Assembly: GCA_017934955.1 (NCBI GenBank)
Contig: JAGBIO010000004.1
Span: 1-32,000, forward strand
Length of the DNA stretch: 32,000 bases
Direction of reading: 5' to 3'
DNA from: Clostridia bacterium
Lineage (GTDB): Bacteria; Bacillota; Clostridia; TANB77; RGIG9151
Of this stretch, positions 884 to 30,506 are shown one piece after another. The notes under the pieces were generated by a model that was given only the letters and a program-made list of their open reading frames with translations, was not told the origin of the DNA and did not search any database. Numbering within the stretch: position 1 is the first letter of the stretch; every line of letters starts with the position of its first letter. Made by a program: the position numbers and the translations under genes.

Positions 884-2221
884 CTAAATGACATTTCCAT
901 GTTTTTTATTCGGTTTCTCAAACCTCTTACTGCTATATAAATCCAACGCCCGAATCACCTGCGCACGCAACATCGCCTCTTCAACAACTACATCTGCAAA
1001 CAGCTCCCTCGCCGCATTCTCGGTCGTTCCCCACTTTTCACTATACTCTCTTGCATAATTTTCCCGCATTTGAATCGGATTTTCCGCCTCGGTAATTTCT
1101 TTATCGTATAAAACCGTTGCAACCGCTTGCGGATCCATAATTGCAATATTGGCCCCTTTCACCGCAATTGTAATATCCGGCTTTGTGCCTAACACCAATA
1201 ACGCTGAACCATACGCTTTTTTCAAAACCACATTTACCTTCGGAACGCTCGCCATGCAATACGCATAAATCAGCTTCGACGCACTTCGAAGCAATCCGCC
1301 TCGCTCCTCCTCCGCATCTGCCCGGAAACTCTTTCCGTCAATAAAGGTAACTAACGGCAAATTAAAGGAATCACAAATTCTTACAAAACGGCAAATTTTC
1401 TCAATATCCTTCTGCGAAATTCGCTCCTCACGTAAAGAAACAATTCCGCAAGCTCTTCCGCCAACCCGTCCCAAACCGGTAACGCTATCGGCAAAAGCTG
1501 CATTTACCTCAAAAAAAGAATCCTCATCACACAAACACAATAAATCCTGCCGAATCTCTCCAACAGAGACAAACGCTTTTTCTTCTTGACACGCATACAT
1601 CGCAGTATCGCTCAAATGGTTTTCCGGAAGATAACTTAATAGTGTGCGAACCTTTCCGGCACACTCGTTAAAATCCCGACAAACGACATCACAAATCCCG
1701 CTTACATCATGGTGCATTTTTGCACCACCAATCTCGCTTAACTGCACTGTTTTTCCGGTTTCTGCCATAATCACCTGCGGACTATTTAAAAACATACAGC
1801 TTTCTTCCAACATAAACACAAAATCTCCAAACGCTGCCATATAAGCCGCTGCACCGGCACATTCCATTGTCACAATTGAAATCATCGGTACCACGCCGCT
1901 TAATTTTGCAAACCACTCCAACACTTGATGAATCCCTGAAACCGCTTTCATGCCTTCGGAAATCTTGGTTCCTGCCGAATCAAACAATCCAACCACAGGA
2001 ACGCCCGTCTTATACGCATTTTCCAATAACTTACAAAGTTTTCGGCAATTTGCTTCGCTTAATGCGCCGGAACAACAAGAAGAGTCCTGCGAAAAAATAT
2101 ATACCGGTCGAGAAGAAATCGCCGCATAACCGCAAACAATCCCCGATTCCTCCTCCGGATTCGTTTCCGCAAAACTCTTTTCATCCACCAAATTCAAAAT
2201 ATATTCTCTCGCCTTTGTCAT
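884..2221 (-). CDS. Acyl-CoA carboxyltransferase subunit (methylmalonyl-CoA decarboxylase alpha / propionyl-CoA carboxylase beta family)
   Basis: Track ORF 884..2287. Carboxyl-transferase-like sequence throughout (GGARACGIV..., two-domain layout). The first 22 codons of the track ORF run into a REP hairpin at 2264-2283. The ATG at 2221 (MTKAREYILN...) has GGAG upstream. Confidence 0.8.
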   Translation of the reverse strand: MTKAREYILNLVDEKSFAETNPEEESGIVCGYAAISSRPVYIFSQDSSCCSGALSEANCRKLCKLLENAYKTGVPVVGLFDSAGTKISEGMKAVSGIHQVLEWFAKLSGVVPMISIVTMECAGAAAYMAAFGDFVFMLEESCMFLNSPQVIMAETGKTVQLSEIGGAKMHHDVSGICDVVCRDFNECAGKVRTLLSYLPENHLSDTAMYACQEEKAFVSVGEIRQDLLCLCDEDSFFEVNAAFADSVTGLGRVGGRACGIVSLREERISQKDIEKICRFVRICDSFNLPLVTFIDGKSFRADAEEERGGLLRSASKLIYAYCMASVPKVNVVLKKAYGSALLVLGTKPDITIAVKGANIAIMDPQAVATVLYDKEITEAENPIQMRENYAREYSEKWGTTENAARELFADVVVEEAMLRAQVIRALDLYSSKRFEKPNKKHGNVI

Positions 2222-2260
2222 TTGTAAACACTCCTTTACGAGCAAGCGTTTTGCCCATTC

Positions 2261-2371
2261 TGCGGACAGCATGAATGCTGTCCACACAATATTTGTGCCT
2301 CTTTCTTTCTATGCTGTCCACACAATATCTGTGCCTCTATCTTTCTGTACGGACAGCATTTATGCTGTCCA
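2261..2371. repeat. REP-like cluster (hairpins 2264-2283 and 2351-2370, half copy 2311-2319) with a 36-bp tandem duplication
   Basis: ggacagcatgaatgctgtcc and gtacggacagcatttatgctgtcc. Positions 2275-2310 and 2311-2346 are near-identical 36-mers. Confidence 0.9.
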
Positions 2372-2857
2372 CTAATATCCTTCTTTTCCTTCTAAAGATT
2401 CGTCGGATTTTACCCATTCTTCCACTTCAATCTCACGATAATGCTCCTTATCATCCCGAATAATAATATTCTTAATTCCCGCATTAATCACCAATCGCTT
2501 ACACATCGGACAGGAACTCGTTCCCGCCACAAGCTCGCCGGTCTTGGGATCCTTACACACCAAATACAAAGTCGCCCCAATCATATCTCGACGAGACGCC
2601 GAAATAATCGCATTCGCCTCCGCATGCACCGAACGACATAATTCATAACGCGTTCCCCGCGGAATATTCAATTCCTCCCGCACGCAATTTCCAATATCAC
2701 AACAATTCTTTCTGTCACGAGGCGCTCCGTTATACCCTGTCGAAATAATCTCATCATTTTTCACAATAATCGCACCAAAGCATCTTCGTAAGCAAGTGCT
2801 TCTCTCCACCACCGTCTCTGCAATGTCTAAATAATAGTTTGTCTTATTCCGTCTCAT
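2372..2857 (-). CDS. comEB: dCMP deaminase (ComEB family, zinc-dependent CMP/dCMP deaminase)
   Basis: Has HAEANAI and PMCKRLV (C-x2-C) zinc-binding motifs at 161 aa. GGAG-type RBS (aaaggagtatttgtATG). The stop codon lies 1 nt from a REP hairpin. Confidence 0.85.
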   Translation of the reverse strand: MRRNKTNYYLDIAETVVERSTCLRRCFGAIIVKNDEIISTGYNGAPRDRKNCCDIGNCVREELNIPRGTRYELCRSVHAEANAIISASRRDMIGATLYLVCKDPKTGELVAGTSSCPMCKRLVINAGIKNIIIRDDKEHYREIEVEEWVKSDESLEGKEGY

Positions 2858-2880
2858 ACAAATACTCCTTTTTTCAAATT

Positions 2881-3040
2881 CTGCCTATTGGGTGGACACA
2901 ATAAATTGTGTCCCTACACATTGTGCTTTTTTCATTATTTCTGCTTATTTGGCGGACACAATAAATTGTGTCCCTACACATTGTGCTTTTTTCATTATTT
3001 CTGCTTATTTAGTGGACACAATAAATTGTGTCCCTACCAT
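2881..3040. repeat. Tandem array of a 60-bp unit (2.7 copies), each carrying GGACACAATAAATTGTGTCC-CTACA
   Basis: Hairpins at 2894-2913, 2954-2973 and 3014-3033. The sequence between them is also identical (cattgtgcttttttcattatttctgcttattt). Confidence 0.95.
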
Positions 3041-3049
3041 CTCTACGTT

Positions 3050-3637
3050 TTATAGGTTCTGCTCATATATTTTTTTATACATTTCATACGCATTCATAAT
3101 TTTCTGCTCATATTTCTTCGTTTCATCAAACGGAATTTCATCCAACGTCTTCCCATCGCCACTCAAATCTTCCCGTTTCAGCCACCTCGATGCGTTAGTC
3201 GGACCCGCATTATACGCCGCAATTGCTACCTTTAAATCTCCGTCAAAGCGATTTAGTAAATATTTGAAGTACCATACTCCCATCATAATATTTTTTTCCG
3301 GATCAAACAAGTCCTCCTGCGAAAAATCTTTTATTCCCATCTTCTCCGCAATCCAACTTCCGGTATCCGGCGTAATCTGCATCAATCCGCACGCCCCTTT
3401 AGCGGAAACCGCATCTTTATCGTAATAGCTTTCTGCACGAATAATGGAATAGACCAAATATTTATCAATATCATTGCTTAACGCATATTTCTCTACAATT
3501 TCCTCATAGGATAACGGATAACGAATTCGATAAACGTCTCCTGACGCAAATTTCCAATAAACCGCTATCAAAAGTCCTATACAAAAAAGGACGAATAAAC
3601 TCTGTATTCCGTTATACGTTGTTTTTTTCTTTTTCAA
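3050..3637 (-). CDS. Membrane-anchored lytic transglycosylase (SLT domain)
   Basis: SLT motifs ES...AVSAKGACGLMQIT and AYNAGPTN, plus an N-terminal TM helix. The track start at 3703 lies inside REP 3695-3714. A TTG at 3637 is preceded by AGGAGG plus 6 nt and gives MKKKKTTYNG... Confidence 0.8.
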   Translation of the reverse strand: MKKKKTTYNGIQSLFVLFCIGLLIAVYWKFASGDVYRIRYPLSYEEIVEKYALSNDIDKYLVYSIIRAESYYDKDAVSAKGACGLMQITPDTGSWIAEKMGIKDFSQEDLFDPEKNIMMGVWYFKYLLNRFDGDLKVAIAAYNAGPTNASRWLKREDLSGDGKTLDEIPFDETKKYEQKIMNAYEMYKKIYEQNL

Positions 3638-3690
3638 CGCAATCCTCCTAACGTTGCTTTTTACGTGCGTTATTTGTGCCTCTTTTTTCC

Positions 3691-3838
3691 GTACGGACAG
3701 CATTTATGCTGTCCTAATTCTAAGTATCTGCCTATTCTGTGGACACAATAAATTGTGTCCCTACAATGTATCATTATAGAAAGATATAGTTTGAACAATA
3801 CCCTCTCTCTCCGTACGGACACAATTTATTGTGTCCTA
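3691..3838. repeat. REP-like cluster (hairpins 3695-3714, 3741-3760, 3817-3836)
   Basis: gtacGGACAGCATTTATGCTGTCC, then ctgcctattctgtGGACACAATAAATTGTGTCCctaca, then gtacGGACACAATTTATTGTGTCC. Confidence 0.95.
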
Positions 3839-6463
3839 TTTTGCATCATACCAACTTTCGCCTGCCTGAAGTTCTACCTTCAATCTTACCGACAAGTTCG
3901 CGGCACTCTCCATCGAATCTCTCACAATCTTCTTTACTTCTTCGATTTCCTCTTCCGCCGTCTCTACTAAAAGTTCGTCATGCACCTGCAACACCAATCT
4001 CGACTTCATTCCCTTTAACTTCCTATTTACCTCAATCATCGCGATTTTAATAATATCCGCCGCACTCCCCTGAATCGGCATATTCATCGCAATTCTCTCA
4101 CCAAAAGCACGAATATTAAAATTTGACGAATGAATCTCCGGCAAATATCTTCTACGCTGAAAAATGGTATCCACGTACCCTTTTTTCTTCGCCTGTGCTA
4201 TCTTCTCATTCATAAAAGTTTTAATTCCCGAAAAGTGCTCGAAATACGCATCAATATAATCTTTCGCCTCTTTTTTGGAAATTCCCAAATCCTGACTCAG
4301 CGAAAAATCACCTTGCCCATACACAATCCCAAAGTTAACGGTTTTCGCACGCGAACGCAAACGCGAAGTAACTTCCTCTTTCGAAACATGAAAAATCTGC
4401 GTTGCTGTCGTTGTATGAATATCCTCATCATGATTAAACGCATCAATCATCGTCTTATCCTGTGCCATATGTGCCAAAACGCGAAGTTCAATCTGCGAAT
4501 AATCGGCATCAATAAACACATAACCCGATTCCGGAACAAACATCTTTCGAATCTTTCTTCCGAGTTCCATTTTTATCGGAATATTCTGCAAATTCGGTTC
4601 GGTACTGCTTAAACGCCCTGTTGCGGTAATCGTTTGATTAAAATTCGAATGCACCCTTCCATCCTTCGCATCAATCACGTTATCGATTCCTTCAATATAA
4701 GTGGACTTCAATTTCGCATACTGCTTATATTCCAAAATCTTCTCCACAATCGGATGATCGTTTTTTATACGTTCCAACGTCTCCGCATCCGTCACATATC
4801 CTTTTTTATTCTTCTTCCCGGCACTTAATCCCAATCGTTCAAACAAAATCTCCCCGATTTGTTTCGGCGAATTTACATTAAACTCCACACCCGCCATTTC
4901 AATAATTTCTTTTCGTACCTCTTCTAATTTTTCACCAAGCTCATTTCCGTAAGCATGAAGGAATTCTCTATCCACCTTCATCCCCGCAATTTGCATATCT
5001 GCCAACACTTCAATTAACGGCATCTCAATCTCAAAGAAAAGTTGTTCCTGACGGTTTTTCTTAATCTCCTGCAAATATTCCGGCATCAATGTCCAAATTA
5101 CCTTTGCTGCCGTCGAAACATATTTATTGTTATCTACTTTTGTATTTACGCTAAACAAACTGATTTGTGTTTCGGCAGTTCCCTTTAACGAAGTTAAATC
5201 AAAAAATAACTTGTCCTGTGCAATCTTATCCACACTACCATCCACACGTGTCGGATTTACCACGTACTGCGCAATATCCAAATCAAAATACAAATTTTTC
5301 AACTCGACCTTTTTCTTCTTTAACGCAATATACACGTTTTTCGTGTTCATTCCATATTTTTTCTTATCATTCTCAAAAATCACCTTCAAAATTTCCTGCG
5401 AAGAAGCAGAATCCAAATCTACACAAATGACTTTTTTATCGGAATAAATCCCGATTTGTGTAAAATCATCCGACGCATAAAACGCAAACTCTTCGAGATC
5501 CGCCAAACTTTGCTCTAATTGCTTGCTATCCGTAAGTTTCTCTCCCACCGCCGGGTGAAAATCGCTCTTTAATGCGGCTGTCCCTGTCAAATTCAGCTTT
5601 TTAATGAAGGTTGTAAACTCCAACTTGTTAAAAATCTCATACAGAGCCTCCGAATTTACTTCCCGCACCTCATATTCCTTTTCCTCAAAAGAAAGCGGAA
5701 TATTTCTGTCAATCGTCGCAAGCGTACGACTCATATACGCCATATCCTTAAACTCTATCAAAGACTCCCGTGCCTTTGGCTTAATCAAGGAATCATCAAT
5801 ATGCTCATAAACACTCTCAATATTTTTATACGCCTTAATATATCCAAGTGCTGTCTTTTCGCCGATTCCCGGCACACCCGGTATATTATCCGAAGAATCT
5901 CCCATTAAACCTTTTACATCAATCAGTTCCAAAGGAGAAACACCATATTTCTCTTTAATTCCCTCAACGTCATACGTTTCCGTCTCGGTACGTCCATTTT
6001 TCGTCACCGGTAGCTTTACGATAATATTGTCCTCAATCAGCTGGAAGGAATCACGATCTCCGGTAAACAAAATAACCTCTTCCCCCTGTTGCTTCGCTTT
6101 TTTCGAAAGGGTACCCAAGATATCATCCGCCTCATAGCCTTCTAATTCTACTCTCTTAATATTCATTGCATCCAAAATTTCTTTGATAATCGGCATCTGC
6201 TGTGCTAACTCATCCGGCATTTTCTTCCGATTCGCCTTATACCCATCATACATTTTATGACGAAAAGTCGGCGCCTTCAAATCAAACGCCACCGCCAAAT
6301 AATCCGGCTGATCCTCATGCAAAATCTTAAATAAAATCGTTAAAAATCCAAAAACAGCATTGGTATGAATCCCATCCTTCGTCATCAGCATATTCTTACC
6401 CGACAGCCCATAAAACGCACGATTCATAATACTGTTTCCATCGATAATGACTAATTTTTTCAT
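3836..6463 (-). CDS. polA: DNA polymerase I
   Basis: 5'-nuclease N-terminus (LVIIDGNS..., GDSSDNIPGVPGIGEKTA) and polymerase motifs DYSQIELRVLAH and QVHDELL. The ATG at 6463 (MKKLVIIDG) has a GGGAG RBS, and the track N-terminal extension runs into the repeat region. The TAG stop overlaps the last base of REP 3817-3836. Confidence 0.97.
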   Translation of the reverse strand: MKKLVIIDGNSIMNRAFYGLSGKNMLMTKDGIHTNAVFGFLTILFKILHEDQPDYLAVAFDLKAPTFRHKMYDGYKANRKKMPDELAQQMPIIKEILDAMNIKRVELEGYEADDILGTLSKKAKQQGEEVILFTGDRDSFQLIEDNIIVKLPVTKNGRTETETYDVEGIKEKYGVSPLELIDVKGLMGDSSDNIPGVPGIGEKTALGYIKAYKNIESVYEHIDDSLIKPKARESLIEFKDMAYMSRTLATIDRNIPLSFEEKEYEVREVNSEALYEIFNKLEFTTFIKKLNLTGTAALKSDFHPAVGEKLTDSKQLEQSLADLEEFAFYASDDFTQIGIYSDKKVICVDLDSASSQEILKVIFENDKKKYGMNTKNVYIALKKKKVELKNLYFDLDIAQYVVNPTRVDGSVDKIAQDKLFFDLTSLKGTAETQISLFSVNTKVDNNKYVSTAAKVIWTLMPEYLQEIKKNRQEQLFFEIEMPLIEVLADMQIAGMKVDREFLHAYGNELGEKLEEVRKEIIEMAGVEFNVNSPKQIGEILFERLGLSAGKKNKKGYVTDAETLERIKNDHPIVEKILEYKQYAKLKSTYIEGIDNVIDAKDGRVHSNFNQTITATGRLSSTEPNLQNIPIKMELGRKIRKMFVPESGYVFIDADYSQIELRVLAHMAQDKTMIDAFNHDEDIHTTTATQIFHVSKEEVTSRLRSRAKTVNFGIVYGQGDFSLSQDLGISKKEAKDYIDAYFEHFSGIKTFMNEKIAQAKKKGYVDTIFQRRRYLPEIHSSNFNIRAFGERIAMNMPIQGSAADIIKIAMIEVNRKLKGMKSRLVLQVHDELLVETAEEEIEEVKKIVRDSMESAANLSVRLKVELQAGESWYDAK

Positions 6464-8679: not shown

Positions 8680-8750
8680 AAAAACTCCTCCGTTTATTCC
8701 GATTATTCTAACCATCAAACTATATCTTCCACAATGTTCGTTCAAACATT

Positions 8751-8853
8751 GTACGGACAGCATTTATGCTGTCCCTACACTAATTTAATTCTGAATAGTA
8801 ACGCGATTAGTTTACTATCCTACCCTTTTGTACGGACACAATTCATTGTGTCC
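8751..8853. repeat. REP-like cluster (8755-8774, 8834-8853) with a TIR-like module at 8779-8801
   Basis: gtacGGACAGCATTTATGCTGTCCctaca, then ctaatttaattctgaatagtaac, then gtacGGACACAATTCATTGTGTCC. Confidence 0.95.
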
Positions 8854-15320: not shown

Positions 15321-15430
15321 TGTACGGACAGCATTCATGCTGTCCTGCTTTTCTGTCCTCACTGCGGACAGCATGAATGCTGTCCCTACAGCTTTTGTGC
15401 CTCCTCTATAAATTTAAGCGTGACAAGCAA
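15321..15430. repeat. REP-like inverted doublet (15326-15345, 15366-15385) plus a degenerate TIR-like tail
   Basis: tcattgtacGGACAGCATTCATGCTGTCC ... gcGGACAGCATGAATGCTGTCCctaca gcttttgtgcc tcctctataaatttaagcgtgac. Confidence 0.93.
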
Positions 15431-17344: not shown

Positions 17345-17555
17345 CTGCGGACACAAATTATTGTGTCCTAATTCTACCGTCTGCCTATTCTGTGGACAGC
17401 ATAAATGCTGTCCCTACAATGTTTGTGCTATCATTGTAGGGACACAATTTATTGTGTCCTAATTCTATCGTCTGCCTATTCTGTGGACACAATAAATTGT
17501 GTCCCTACAGTGTTTGTGCCTTTTCTATAAATTTGAGTCTGACCTGTAACAATGA
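17345..17555. repeat. Two tandem ~91-bp REP-doublet units (hairpins 17349-17368, 17394-17413, 17440-17459, 17485-17504) plus a TIR-like tail
   Basis: The units at 17349-17439 and 17440-17530 align base for base, except that the second hairpin core is GCAT/ATGC in one and CAAT/ATTG in the other. Confidence 0.95.
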
Positions 17556-22731: not shown

Positions 22732-22831
22732 AAAAACACCACCCTATAACATAGAATACCTACTTTTATTTTACCACTTTTTCTAAATTATGTAAACGAC
22801 TTTGCTTCATTTTCCAAGAAGAGGGGTTATT

Positions 22832-23001
22832 GTTCAGACTATATTTCTCTACAATGTTTGCACAATCATTGTAGGGACACAATTTATGGTGTCCGGAAAA
22901 TAGGCGGAGTCCACAGAAAAGGCAGAAAAGCAGGACAGCATGAATGCTGTCCCTACAATAATGTCGCAATCATTGCAGGAGACGGCGTCCTCGACGTCCC
23001 G
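22832..23001. repeat. Composite REP-like cluster (22875-22894, 22933-22952, GC-rich variant in reverse orientation ~22975-23001)
   Basis: gttcagactatat..., then caatcattGTAGGGACACAATTTATGGTGTCC, then GGACAGCATGAATGCTGTCCctaca, then gcaggagacggcgtcctcgacgtcccg. Confidence 0.9.
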
Positions 23002-24540: not shown

Positions 24541-24719
24541 GGACAGCATGAATGCTGTCCCTACATTGGTTGTGTTGATTTATCTATCCAGGTGGACAGC
24601 ATGAATGCTGTCCCTACAATGCTTGTGTTGATTTATCTATCCAAGTGGACAGCATGAATGCTGTCCCTACATTGGTTGTATTTATTTCGCCATCCGTACG
24701 GACAGCATTTATGCTGTCC
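24541..24719. repeat. Three tandem 53-bp units (hairpins 24541-24560, 24594-24613, 24647-24666) plus an inverted copy at 24700-24719
   Basis: GGACAGCATGAATGCTGTCCctacaWtgSttgtgttgatttatctatccaRgt repeated three times, then gtacGGACAGCATTTATGCTGTCC. Confidence 0.95.
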
Positions 24720-29039: not shown

Positions 29040-29143
29040 ATACATAAGGGTCGTAAAAACACCTCAATTAAATTATATTTGTTGTATAAAAAAATTTAAT
29101 ATGGCTATACTCCCAATATACATAAAAAATGGGAGGAATTACT

Positions 29144-29776
29144 ATGAAAAAATTTTATATTTTAACTTTTGTTGGGATTGCTTTATTGCTTTTCGCCGTT
29201 ATGATCGGTGAAAGTGTGATTTCGAAAAATCAACAGACAAAACCGAATTTGCAGGAAATTCATCAAGTAGAACAGCAGCATCAAGTACAAACGGAATTAG
29301 AAATAACACAGGCAAATCAAACGAAAGTAACCGAAATCAAACCGATTCCGGAAGAAACGGAAAAGAAAAAAGAATTGCAATTTATGAAACCGGTTGAAGG
29401 CGAAATCGAAATGAACTACTCACCCGAAACATTAATTTATTCAAAAACACTCGGTGAATGGAAAGTTCACAACGGAATTGACATCAAAGCCGAAAGAGGA
29501 ACTGCCGTAAAAGCCGCTGAAGCCGGTAGAATCACAGATATCTCCGAAACTACCGATAAAGGGATTGAAATTACGATTTCTCACGCCGACGGCTACCAAA
29601 CCGTTTACTCGAACTTATCCACAAAGTCTATGGCAGCCCCAAATCAAGAGGTGGAAAAAGGACAAGTCATCAGTGGCGTCGGGAACACCGCCGCTTTTGA
29701 ATATTACGAGCCGGATCATTTACATTTCGAAGTCTATAAAGACGGAAAATTAGTTGATCCAAACAGTATTTTTTAG
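29144..29776 (+). CDS. Membrane-anchored M23/LytM peptidase, likely SpoIIQ-like
   Basis: TM anchor, Gln/Glu-rich linker and a LytM domain with HNGIDI (HxxxD) and HLHFEV (HxH). Position after spoIID matches clostridial spoIIQ. ATG 29144 (MKKFYIL) has GGGAGG upstream; the track starts at 29129. Confidence 0.8.
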   Translation: MKKFYILTFVGIALLLFAVMIGESVISKNQQTKPNLQEIHQVEQQHQVQTELEITQANQTKVTEIKPIPEETEKKKELQFMKPVEGEIEMNYSPETLIYSKTLGEWKVHNGIDIKAERGTAVKAAEAGRITDISETTDKGIEITISHADGYQTVYSNLSTKSMAAPNQEVEKGQVISGVGNTAAFEYYEPDHLHFEVYKDGKLVDPNSIF

Positions 29777-29785
29777 AAAAAAAGA

Positions 29786-29920
29786 GTTACAATTCAGACT
29801 ATAATCTTTCTATAATAATGGTACAATCATTGTAGGGACAGCATTTATGCTGTCCTGCTTTCTGCCTTTTCTGTGGACAGCATGAATGCTTTTCCTATAA
29901 ATTTAATTCTGAATTATAAC
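29786..29920. mobile_element. 135-bp MITE-like composite: terminal inverted repeats enclosing a REP doublet (29836-29855 and a degenerate copy 29875-29895)
   Basis: The left end is gttacaattcagactataa. The right end ttataaatttaattctgaattataac reverse-complements to gttataattcagaattaaattta. The interior is caatcattGTAGGGACAGCATTTATGCTGTCCtgctttctgccttttctgtGGACAGCATGAATGCTtttcc. Non-coding, between convergent genes. Confidence 0.6.
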
Positions 29921-29927
29921 CTTTTTC

Positions 29928-30506
29928 TTATTTCACTATGTATGCTTTCGTTCCGTCGCCGTTTCCAACATTAACGGCGTTTCCTTCGTCGGTATCGATG
30001 TGCATTGCTAATGCAAACTTATCGCTGACTCTTACCACTACATCTCCGAAGATAAGGCTTCTGTCTTGACTTTCTACTTTTACATTTACGTTTTCTTTAT
30101 CTTGTACACCAAATTTTTCAGCATCTTCAGGTGTCATATGAATATGACGTTTTGCGATAATTAAACCTTTATCTAAGGTTATTGAACCTGTTTCTGATTT
30201 TATTTCTACGCCCGGTGTTCCCTCGATATCGCCCGATTCGCGAATTGCGCCCATAATTCCGAGAGCAAAGCAATCGGATTTTGCAAACTCAATCTGCGAT
30301 GCTTTTCTTTCCGGTCCCAATACAGCCACATTTTCAAATGTTTTCTTCGGTCCGATAACCGTTACTCTCTCTTCTGCCAAGAATTGACCCGGTTGCGACA
30401 AATCTTTTTTCGGCGTCAACTTATGACCCTTTCCAAATAACATTTCTACTGCTTCTTGTGTCAAATGTACATGACGTGCCGAAACTTCCACTTTAATATT
30501 TTCCAT
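29928..30506 (-). CDS. pduL: Phosphate propanoyl/acetyltransferase PduL
   Basis: Two PduL repeats with SARHVHL and AKRHIHM motifs, at a typical ~190 aa. AAGGGGGA RBS. Confidence 0.88.
   Translation of the reverse strand: MENIKVEVSARHVHLTQEAVEMLFGKGHKLTPKKDLSQPGQFLAEERVTVIGPKKTFENVAVLGPERKASQIEFAKSDCFALGIMGAIRESGDIEGTPGVEIKSETGSITLDKGLIIAKRHIHMTPEDAEKFGVQDKENVNVKVESQDRSLIFGDVVVRVSDKFALAMHIDTDEGNAVNVGNGDGTKAYIVK

Follow-up and report, generated by a model that had tools for sequence, protein, structure and literature searches.

The window, i.e. the whole stretch of 32,000 nucleotides analysed here, corresponds to contig 25 of the genome of an uncultured member of the Clostridia (assembly of 35 contigs, 1.57 Mb, 99.7% complete, 38.8% G+C). 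In this window a Peptidase_M23 gene and a gene for a PTAC/PduL phosphotransacylase converge on a 151-bp spacer that is wholly filled by a short element with inverted-repeat ends (TIRs) and an interior made of REP hairpins. The features of the locus are the following.

29129–29776, + strand: Peptidase_M23 (SpoIIQ-like) gene, convergent, upstream, with its stop 9 bp before the element
29786–29920, no strand: whole MITE copy, 135 bp, of the 153-bp type, with a 20-bp internal deletion and without target-site duplication
29786–29800, + strand: left TIR GTTACAATTCAGACT, an IS66/ISBst12-type end
29801–29835, + strand: left arm (subterminal module, 35 nt), terminating in the GTAG tag of REP 1 (29832–29835)
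29836–29855, no strand: REP hairpin 1, GGACAGCATTTATGCTGTCC, 9-bp stem and 2-nt loop, intact, a perfect palindrome
29856–29874, no strand: 19-nt spacer TGCTTTCTGCCTTTTCTGT between the REPs, the commonest spacer of the family
29875–29894, no strand: REP hairpin 2, GGACAGCATGAATGCTTTTC, of which the 3' half of the stem and the CTACAnTGTTTGTGCC module are gone (20-bp deletion)
29906–29920, − strand: right TIR ATTCTGAATTATAAC (AATTCTGAATTATAAC), reverse complement GTTATAATTCAGAAT
29928–30506, − strand: PTAC/PduL phosphotransacylase gene, convergent, downstream, with its stop 7 bp after the element

The sequence-only reading from which this work started had described a discrete 135-bp element between convergent spoIIQ-like and pduL genes, with inverted repeats at its ends. 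The sequence at 29786–29920 is as described, and the ends are complementary at 12 of the 13 positions of the 13-mer given there, or at 13 of 15 positions over 15 nt. The interior had been called a REP doublet, which is correct for the first hairpin (GTAG and GGACAGCATTTATGCTGTCC together span 29832–29855) but not for the second, which is truncated: as the 3' half of its stem is lost, the 'doublet' of the window copy is really 1.5 REPs. There is no ORF in the 135 bp. Alignment to the nearest relatives of this copy (e.g. C13:8171–8323) identifies it as a 153-bp-type element with two kinds of lesion, the 20-bp deletion and two single-base insertions in the left arm. No target duplication was found at this copy, the flanks being AAAAAAGA on one side and CTTTTTCT on the other. 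An inversion between two copies was considered as the source of these unmatched flanks and rejected: the search revealed no reciprocal partner, and both flanks have a low complexity. The copy would have shed its 20 bp and its flanking duplication after insertion, and recombination between neighbouring copies is a possible route for the loss of the duplication. We infer the arrival of the window copy by transposition solely from its membership of the family described below.

Other members of this family lie in the window. The GGACAGCATTTATGCTGTCC-type hairpin palindrome is present in 19 copies (0.00 expected). End modules had been claimed to recur at several further sites, and five of these were located, at 180–192, 202–214, 8790–8802, 17538–17550 and 22826–22838; the remaining site, 15408–15430, holds only a degenerate end copy (GCGTGA...GCAAT). 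These ends belong to the following partial elements.

1–192, no strand: right part of a further member, running off the contig start and terminating in TCTGAGCAGTAAC (180–192)
202–260, + strand: further, truncated element comprising left end ATTACAAGTCAGA, arm and a GGGACGTCGAGGACGCCGTCCC hairpin, 9 bp past the preceding right end
8716–8802, no strand: decayed single-REP copy with right TIR TCTGAATAGTAAC (8790–8802), left end degenerate
17349–17550, no strand: four-REP cluster with right TIR TCTGACCTGTAAC (17538–17550), left TIR absent
22826–22952, + strand: left TIR GTTATTGTTCAGA, arm and REP doublet, right TIR absent

The right and left ends that had been noticed to abut within 163–222 were found at 180–214, with 9 bp between them. 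The window also contains two tandem REP arrays without IS66-type ends, at 24541–24719 and 2894–3033; in one the period is 53 nt and there are four copies, in the other it is 60 nt, with three copies. Hairpin pairs in the same, tandem orientation were seen only outside MITE shells.

A MITE family with 8-bp target duplications

Genome-wide, the end motif GTTACnnnTCAGA / TCTGAnnnGTAAC occurs in 201 exact copies (3.6 expected), and conservation of the ends breaks off sharply past GTAAC. The TIR pattern read backwards, used as a control, had no match in this genome and close to none across 301 genomes. When one mismatch is allowed there are 196 left and 203 right ends, which form 102 left–right pairs less than 600 bp apart, with a size peak at 153–154 bp; 195 of the 399 ends are solo. 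Exactly two hairpins are found inside 72 of the 102 paired elements. The 8 bp outside each end are identical on both sides in 35 of the pairs, differ by one mismatch in 15 and by two in 9, and control flanks offset by 20 bp gave no pair with two mismatches or fewer. Perfect matches are nearly confined to length 8, other lengths giving almost none. Exact direct duplications of 8 bp are the mark of a DDE transposase and not of an HUH/Y1 enzyme. An insertion in the style of IS200/IS605 beside a TTAC target was considered and rejected, as the duplications are direct 8-mers that lie outside GTTAC. The genome-wide search for an element consensus and target-site duplications, which had been proposed as a check, yielded 102 pairs, 59 of which carry an 8-bp duplication with at most two mismatches.

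The 39 copies of 149–157 bp have a median pairwise identity of 0.82. Two copies, at C26:46344 and C23:52118, are 99.4% identical and are each flanked by a perfect duplication, AATTTTCT for one and GTTTCATA for the other, so the whole composite was copied as one unit, recently. C13:86275 is another locus with a perfect duplication. The view that the mobile unit is larger than a bare REP is borne out by discrete boundaries, the 153–154-bp peak, the 8-bp duplications and near-identical copies at different sites: the composite is copied whole to new sites as one unit. Within the shell, the arms (from tip to hairpin) belong to several unrelated sequence types that are freely combined, and positions 6–8 are equal between the two ends of one element in only 18 of the 102 pairs. 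These two observations suggest that arms have been reassorted among copies, and simple descent from one master copy fails to account for the unequal positions 6–8.

Abutting ends like those at 180–214 are a recurrent arrangement. Right–left junctions of 40 bp or less number 11 in the genome, for about 1 expected, and their spacing is exactly 8 bp in 5 cases and 9 bp in 4, the window case being one of 9 bp. At C27:95714 and C27:95883 one 8-mer, TCCGAAAA, flanks both elements and also separates them. The 8–9-bp junctions and this common 8-mer indicate that new insertions often use the 8 bp adjoining a resident end.

Two larger or unrelated repeat units were met in the course of the survey. At C13:13049–15494 (locus L003, 550–2995) a 2446-bp unit has MITE-type inverted ends and a perfect 8-bp duplication, AAGAGGTA; it contains two paralogous ORFs (219 and 224 aa) without Pfam match, plus several REPs, and is apparently a gene-carrying cassette moved by the same transposase as the MITEs. 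A 132-bp intergenic repeat family (GTTGTATAGGAAAAATC...GCAAAACACTTTT) is represented by C8:17510–17641 and 21 other full copies, and one copy of this repeat is inserted into the spacer of a MITE (C34:6827–7115).

The partner insertion sequence

The MITE termini of 13–15 nt, GTTACnnnTCAGAct, are the ends of a single-ORF insertion sequence (IS) of the IS66 family, ISBst12-like. The pattern GTTACNNNTCAGACT was found in 44 of the 301 genomes of the order, the window's own included. In three related genomes, pairs of ends 1.7–1.8 kb apart enclose a single gene, the third copy being broken. Two ISs from related genomes (1676–1782 bp) encode a protein of 496–500 aa that matches DDE_Tnp_IS66 (PF03050) with 95.9 and 83.1 bits as well as DUF6444; one ORF of at least 100 aa is present on the coding strand within these 1.7-kb elements, and their 8-bp duplications are GAATTATT and CCTTATTC. 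Seven further full-length copies, from MAGs labelled 'uncultured Clostridia bacterium', carry the TIR GTTACTGTTCAGACT or differ from it by one base; six of the seven are flanked by perfect 8-bp duplications. Copies of the partner IS in related uncultured Clostridia are 1.5–1.8-kb, single-ORF, ISBst12-like elements. ISDge4, which belongs to the ISBst12 group (IS66 family) and whose transposition has been seen, has TIRs GTGACTACTCAGCA / GTAACTGCTCAGCA and an 8-bp direct repeat (PMC12898284). The single DDE_Tnp_IS66 ORF, the 8-bp direct repeat and the TIR form GTnACnnnTCAG (GTnAC...TCAG-type ends, as described for ISDge4) are common to this group and to the IS studied here, the ORF being seen whole in the relatives. 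The window element differs from the group as a non-autonomous derivative, and the IS of its own genome differs by an 84-nt TIR that includes a subterminal hairpin, its interior being unassembled.

The partner IS occurs in the window's organism, where the evidence consists of both ends and the last 28 transposase codons only. A Pfam search of this genome gave no match to DDE_Tnp_IS66, and domain searches of the same genome gave none to DDE_Tnp_1, ISL3, IS66 or IS1595. A tblastn search of it with the transposases of the relatives recovered the 28 final codons at two contig boundaries, the start of contig 27 and the end of contig 24 (60% identical, E 0.011), where the order is transposase C-terminus, hairpin, then GGGGGTATCTGACCTGTAAC. 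The matching left end stands at the end of contig 8: an inverted repeat of 84 nt, identical to the right end at 83 of 84 positions, past which a 5' leader continues to the contig limit. The same bases, ATTTTTTA, are found outside this left end and outside the right end on contig 27, so a single IS insertion accounts for both, with one junction at the end of contig 8 and the other at the start of contig 27. The interior of this insertion is absent from the assembly; contig 24 represents a second IS copy, and three contig ends of the genome bear the IS. The outer 13 nt of this resident IS, GTTACAGGTCAGA, are the commonest MITE terminus, and they are the only sequence that IS and MITEs have in common. 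A full-length autonomous element with the same termini, which it had been proposed to look for, exists in relatives, but the window's genome offers only its ends and last codons. We suggest that the DDE transposase of the partner IS moves the MITEs in trans, by cut- or copy-and-paste.

Searches further afield for the whole resident IS gave little. The IS end, compared by blastn with 300 genomes of the order, matched only 54 nt (85% identity) in one genome (G007), and a protein search with the transposase of another genome (G242) gave 3,258 homologues, with the C-terminus encoded in the window's genome in none of the best 120. None of the contigs of 1.5–4.4 kb examined as possible IS copies is one. 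Two other transposase hits were rejected as partners. The IS256-family hit is a C-terminal fragment only (C22:33364–33798, locus L018 1408–2196; NF033543, 147 bits), with different ends, to which no MITE ends correspond; about 500 bp from it there is a MITE of 189 bp. The rve hit belongs to an ISNCY-family IS with a 422-aa transposase (C21:~3322–4852, locus L020 ~1823–3353; NF033594, 407 bits), whose ends also differ and whose direct repeats are of about 19 bp; the flanking 19-nt repeat, GTCCTTTCTTAATACCTAT, has no relation to the MITE ends.

REP hairpins in the genome and in the shell

The interior of the MITE is not derived from the IS; it is an inverted GTAG-tagged REP pair of a separate REP system. 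The genome contains 1,073 hairpins of three types (GGACAGCAT..ATGCTGTCC, 699 copies; GGACACAAT..ATTGTGTCC, 318; GGGACGnCGnGGACGnCGTCCC, 56). Among the 1,017 hairpins that belong to one of the two main types (GGACAGCAT and GGACACAAT), about 95% are tagged with GTAG or GTAC, 949 on one side only and 23 on both, and a one-sided GTAG/GTAC tag is the signature of the GTAG-tagged REP superfamily (PMC3733652). Hairpins cluster most frequently by two (248 clusters), and the commonest arrangement is an inverted doublet with outward tags and a spacer of 19, 20 or 25 nt (n=220). A single-copy gene at C22:48449–48943, called here RAYT-1, has a hairpin of the first type on both sides and encodes a 164-aa Y1 transposase, which matches PF01797 (Y1_Tnp) with 30.9 bits for a cut-off of 23 and NF047646 (REP_Tyr_transpos) with 64 bits, below the model cut-off of 80; its best PDB hit is 4er8, E. 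coli TnpArep. These sequence features identify the MITE core as a REPIN-like doublet, and the same genome contains a RAYT-like gene. A second RAYT-like gene, encoding 206 aa, is present at C32:423–1043 (locus L002 423–1043; NF047646, 63 bits), with a GGGACGTCGAGGACGCCGTCCCCTAC hairpin downstream and with copies or fragments of the repeat in frame at three places inside the coding sequence.

Hairpins are not restricted to MITEs: 190 lie inside clean end pairs (about 18%), 211 at 200 bp or less from a solo end and 672 (63%) elsewhere, far from any end, so REPs also spread without the shell. Both ends are present on 88 of the 220 close outward-tagged doublets and a single end on 71, so that 72% have at least one IS66-type end; on the other 61 none is recognisable. 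The hairpin has 605 exact copies in its own genome and none in the 300 others from the order, among them seven congeneric ones. A search of the eight other genomes of the family for a RAYT-1 homologue gave none. The TIR pattern is present in 43 other genomes of the order. In related genomes, 22 paired MITEs that were read have the same ends and 8-bp duplications around unrelated, REP-free interiors, and the end modules are not specific to REP cores. The proposal that MITE termini are combined with REPIN-like cores is supported, with the qualifications that the same ends bound REP-free MITEs elsewhere and that most hairpins lie away from ends.

The hairpin and RAYT-1, seen in one species only among the genomes compared, together with the REP-free MITEs of other genomes, suggest that the shell is older and the REP core later. 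On the simplest reading, the MITE shell would have been widespread in the order before the REP/RAYT system entered this species only, recently; a REP doublet would then have come to sit at the centre of a pre-existing shell, and the IS66 transposase may have amplified the composite while arms were reassorted among copies. As for empty sites, a blastn search with the 153-bp element against 30 relatives gave nothing. Same-genus genomes are about 75% identical and the window locus is not syntenic in them; exact-protein look-ups for the locus elsewhere returned the same sample only, or nothing, to which start-codon choice may contribute. One same-genus genome (G006) provided two further observations. 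A 1609-bp unit with MITE-type ends and the duplication ACAATTTT (C163:41–1649, locus L045) seems to contain two coding regions, without a transposase. A solo IS66-type end of a different MITE (C89:5208–5222, locus L013) lies about 130 nt downstream of the pduL orthologue, and is either an independent insertion or an old shared one.

Nested elements and alternative readings

Taken together, these observations make it very probable that the 135-bp element is a worn, small non-coding transposon with IS66-family ends, in the interior of which two REP hairpins derive from another mobile system, unrelated to the first. The composite is two known kinds of selfish DNA nested in one another; it is not a new kind of element, and nothing in it points to a new mechanism. 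One could propose instead that the outer repeats are part of the REP system and not transposon ends, the unit being a REPIN- or BIME-type repeat with long inverted 'leader' arms, mobilised by the RAYT. In its favour, the core is a typical inverted GTAG-tagged doublet with a single long hairpin as its fold, the genome has a RAYT gene with REPs of the same kind on both sides, and 61 doublets are without recognisable TIR, while 63% of hairpins are away from ends. However, HUH/Y1 transposases of the IS200/IS605-RAYT type are not known to duplicate their target, whereas the duplications here are of exactly 8 bp, and genomes that lack both the REP and a close RAYT contain IS66-family ISs and REP-free MITEs with these same ends. 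The 8-bp duplications and the shared IS66 ends largely refute this proposal, which we consider extremely unlikely. The composite could also be fortuitous, if two half-MITEs or solo IS ends had landed independently beside a pre-existing REP doublet because the transposase favours hairpin-rich targets. Solo ends are frequent (almost half of all ends, 195 of 399), ends cluster, with abutting elements exactly 8–9 bp apart, and the window copy has no duplication. Independent landings do not explain why the outer 8 bp match at two mismatches or fewer in 59 of 102 pairs, why 72 of the 102 hold exactly two hairpins at a fixed length of 153–154 bp, or why full-length copies 99.4% identical stand at unrelated sites. 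As a general account this scenario is already refuted by the matching outer duplications of the family, and we judge it very unlikely.

A different question is whether the element is kept at this locus for a function, as a bidirectional terminator or an mRNA-stabilising hairpin for the M23-peptidase and pduL genes, its mobile origin being secondary. It fills the whole 151-bp spacer, and in folding predictions each strand forms a single long hairpin, with −50.3 kcal/mol (z −8.0) for one strand and −48.8 kcal/mol (z −7.0) for the other, between an A-run and a T-run. Yet a scan for consensus terminators found none at the element, Rfam gave no meaningful match for it or for the 89-bp loop insert described below, the copy is decaying (20-bp deletion, mismatched TIR), and a structure of this kind is a by-product of any palindromic MITE. 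Retention for such a role is therefore unlikely; in the main reading, the decayed MITE copy with its REP core would now be no more than a strong hairpin lodged in the spacer of the two convergent genes, where some incidental termination of transcription may occur.

Both components, the MITE shell and the REP doublet, are well known. IS-derived MITEs include Correia/NEMIS, RUP, bcr1, Nezha and Chunjie (PMC3733652, PMC3184786), and the family described here resembles them by its size (86–290 bp), its non-coding nature, 13–15-nt TIRs identical to those of a resident IS, a target duplication of fixed length, many intergenic copies and strong hairpin folding. It differs from them in that the interior is a RAYT-linked REP doublet instead of a deleted IS or random AT-rich filler, and in that several unrelated arm modules are freely combined. 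With REPINs and RAYTs (Bertels and Rainey, 2011, PMC3116915; Di Nocera et al., 2013, PMC3733652) it shares 20-nt hairpins tagged with GTAG or GTAC, inverted doublets as the commonest form, a very high copy number and a Y1 transposase gene between repeats. REPINs as described have neither IS TIRs nor target duplications, whereas the composite has both; the whole element is thus not classed as a REPIN, and its core alone is one. The host here belongs to the uncultured Clostridia, and the text of the Di Nocera survey contains neither 'Clostridi' nor 'Firmicutes'. Mobile insertion cassettes and composite MITE transposons, as far as they are outlined for a MITE-flanked bla PER-1 (PMC3934969) and for TIME-COMPs (bioRxiv 10.1101/2025.11.05.686661), have in common with the present family that the same ends bound gene-carrying units with perfect 8-bp duplications (C13:13049–15494 and G006 C163:41–1649), and the window element differs by carrying no gene. 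Our literature search found no paper on REP doublets inside a MITE shell.

The capture of a REP doublet within the ends of a DDE IS, and its copying as part of that unit, shows that mobile systems without relation to each other can combine in a single non-coding element. REPINs are presented, in the abstracts of two accounts, as replicators tied to one RAYT gene and vertically inherited (PMC3337134; bioRxiv 10.1101/2021.07.10.451892), and the composite provides a concrete case for asking whether REPs spread without a RAYT. It also illustrates how MITE interiors are replaced, with constant ends, across an order of bacteria. For annotation it calls for caution, as about 1,070 REP hairpins and 200–400 IS66-type ends saturate the intergenic space of this 1.57-Mb genome and break its assembly.

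The REP hairpins lie 46–49 nt from the tip of the element in three unrelated arm types, and the subterminal hairpin of the parent IS lies at nt 43. The hairpins might be more than passengers and replace the subterminal hairpin of the IS in transposase recognition or strand handling, in a dual-system element that would require the IS66 enzyme in order to spread, with the RAYT shaping or also processing it. We regard this idea as distinctly unlikely; if it were true, REPINs would gain a RAYT-independent route of amplification. Hairpins also serve as sites for another repeat. A non-coding element of 89 bp (GCGGACGTAAC...TTTYGACTGC) is present at 49–135 of the window (− strand) and in 30 copies in the genome (e.g. 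C35:18423–18511). At least 24 of the 30 copies lie inside the 2-nt loop of a REP hairpin, of either main type, and most of the others are inside the separate 132-bp repeat; the 89-bp element seems to form a third tier of nesting, targeting hairpin loops.
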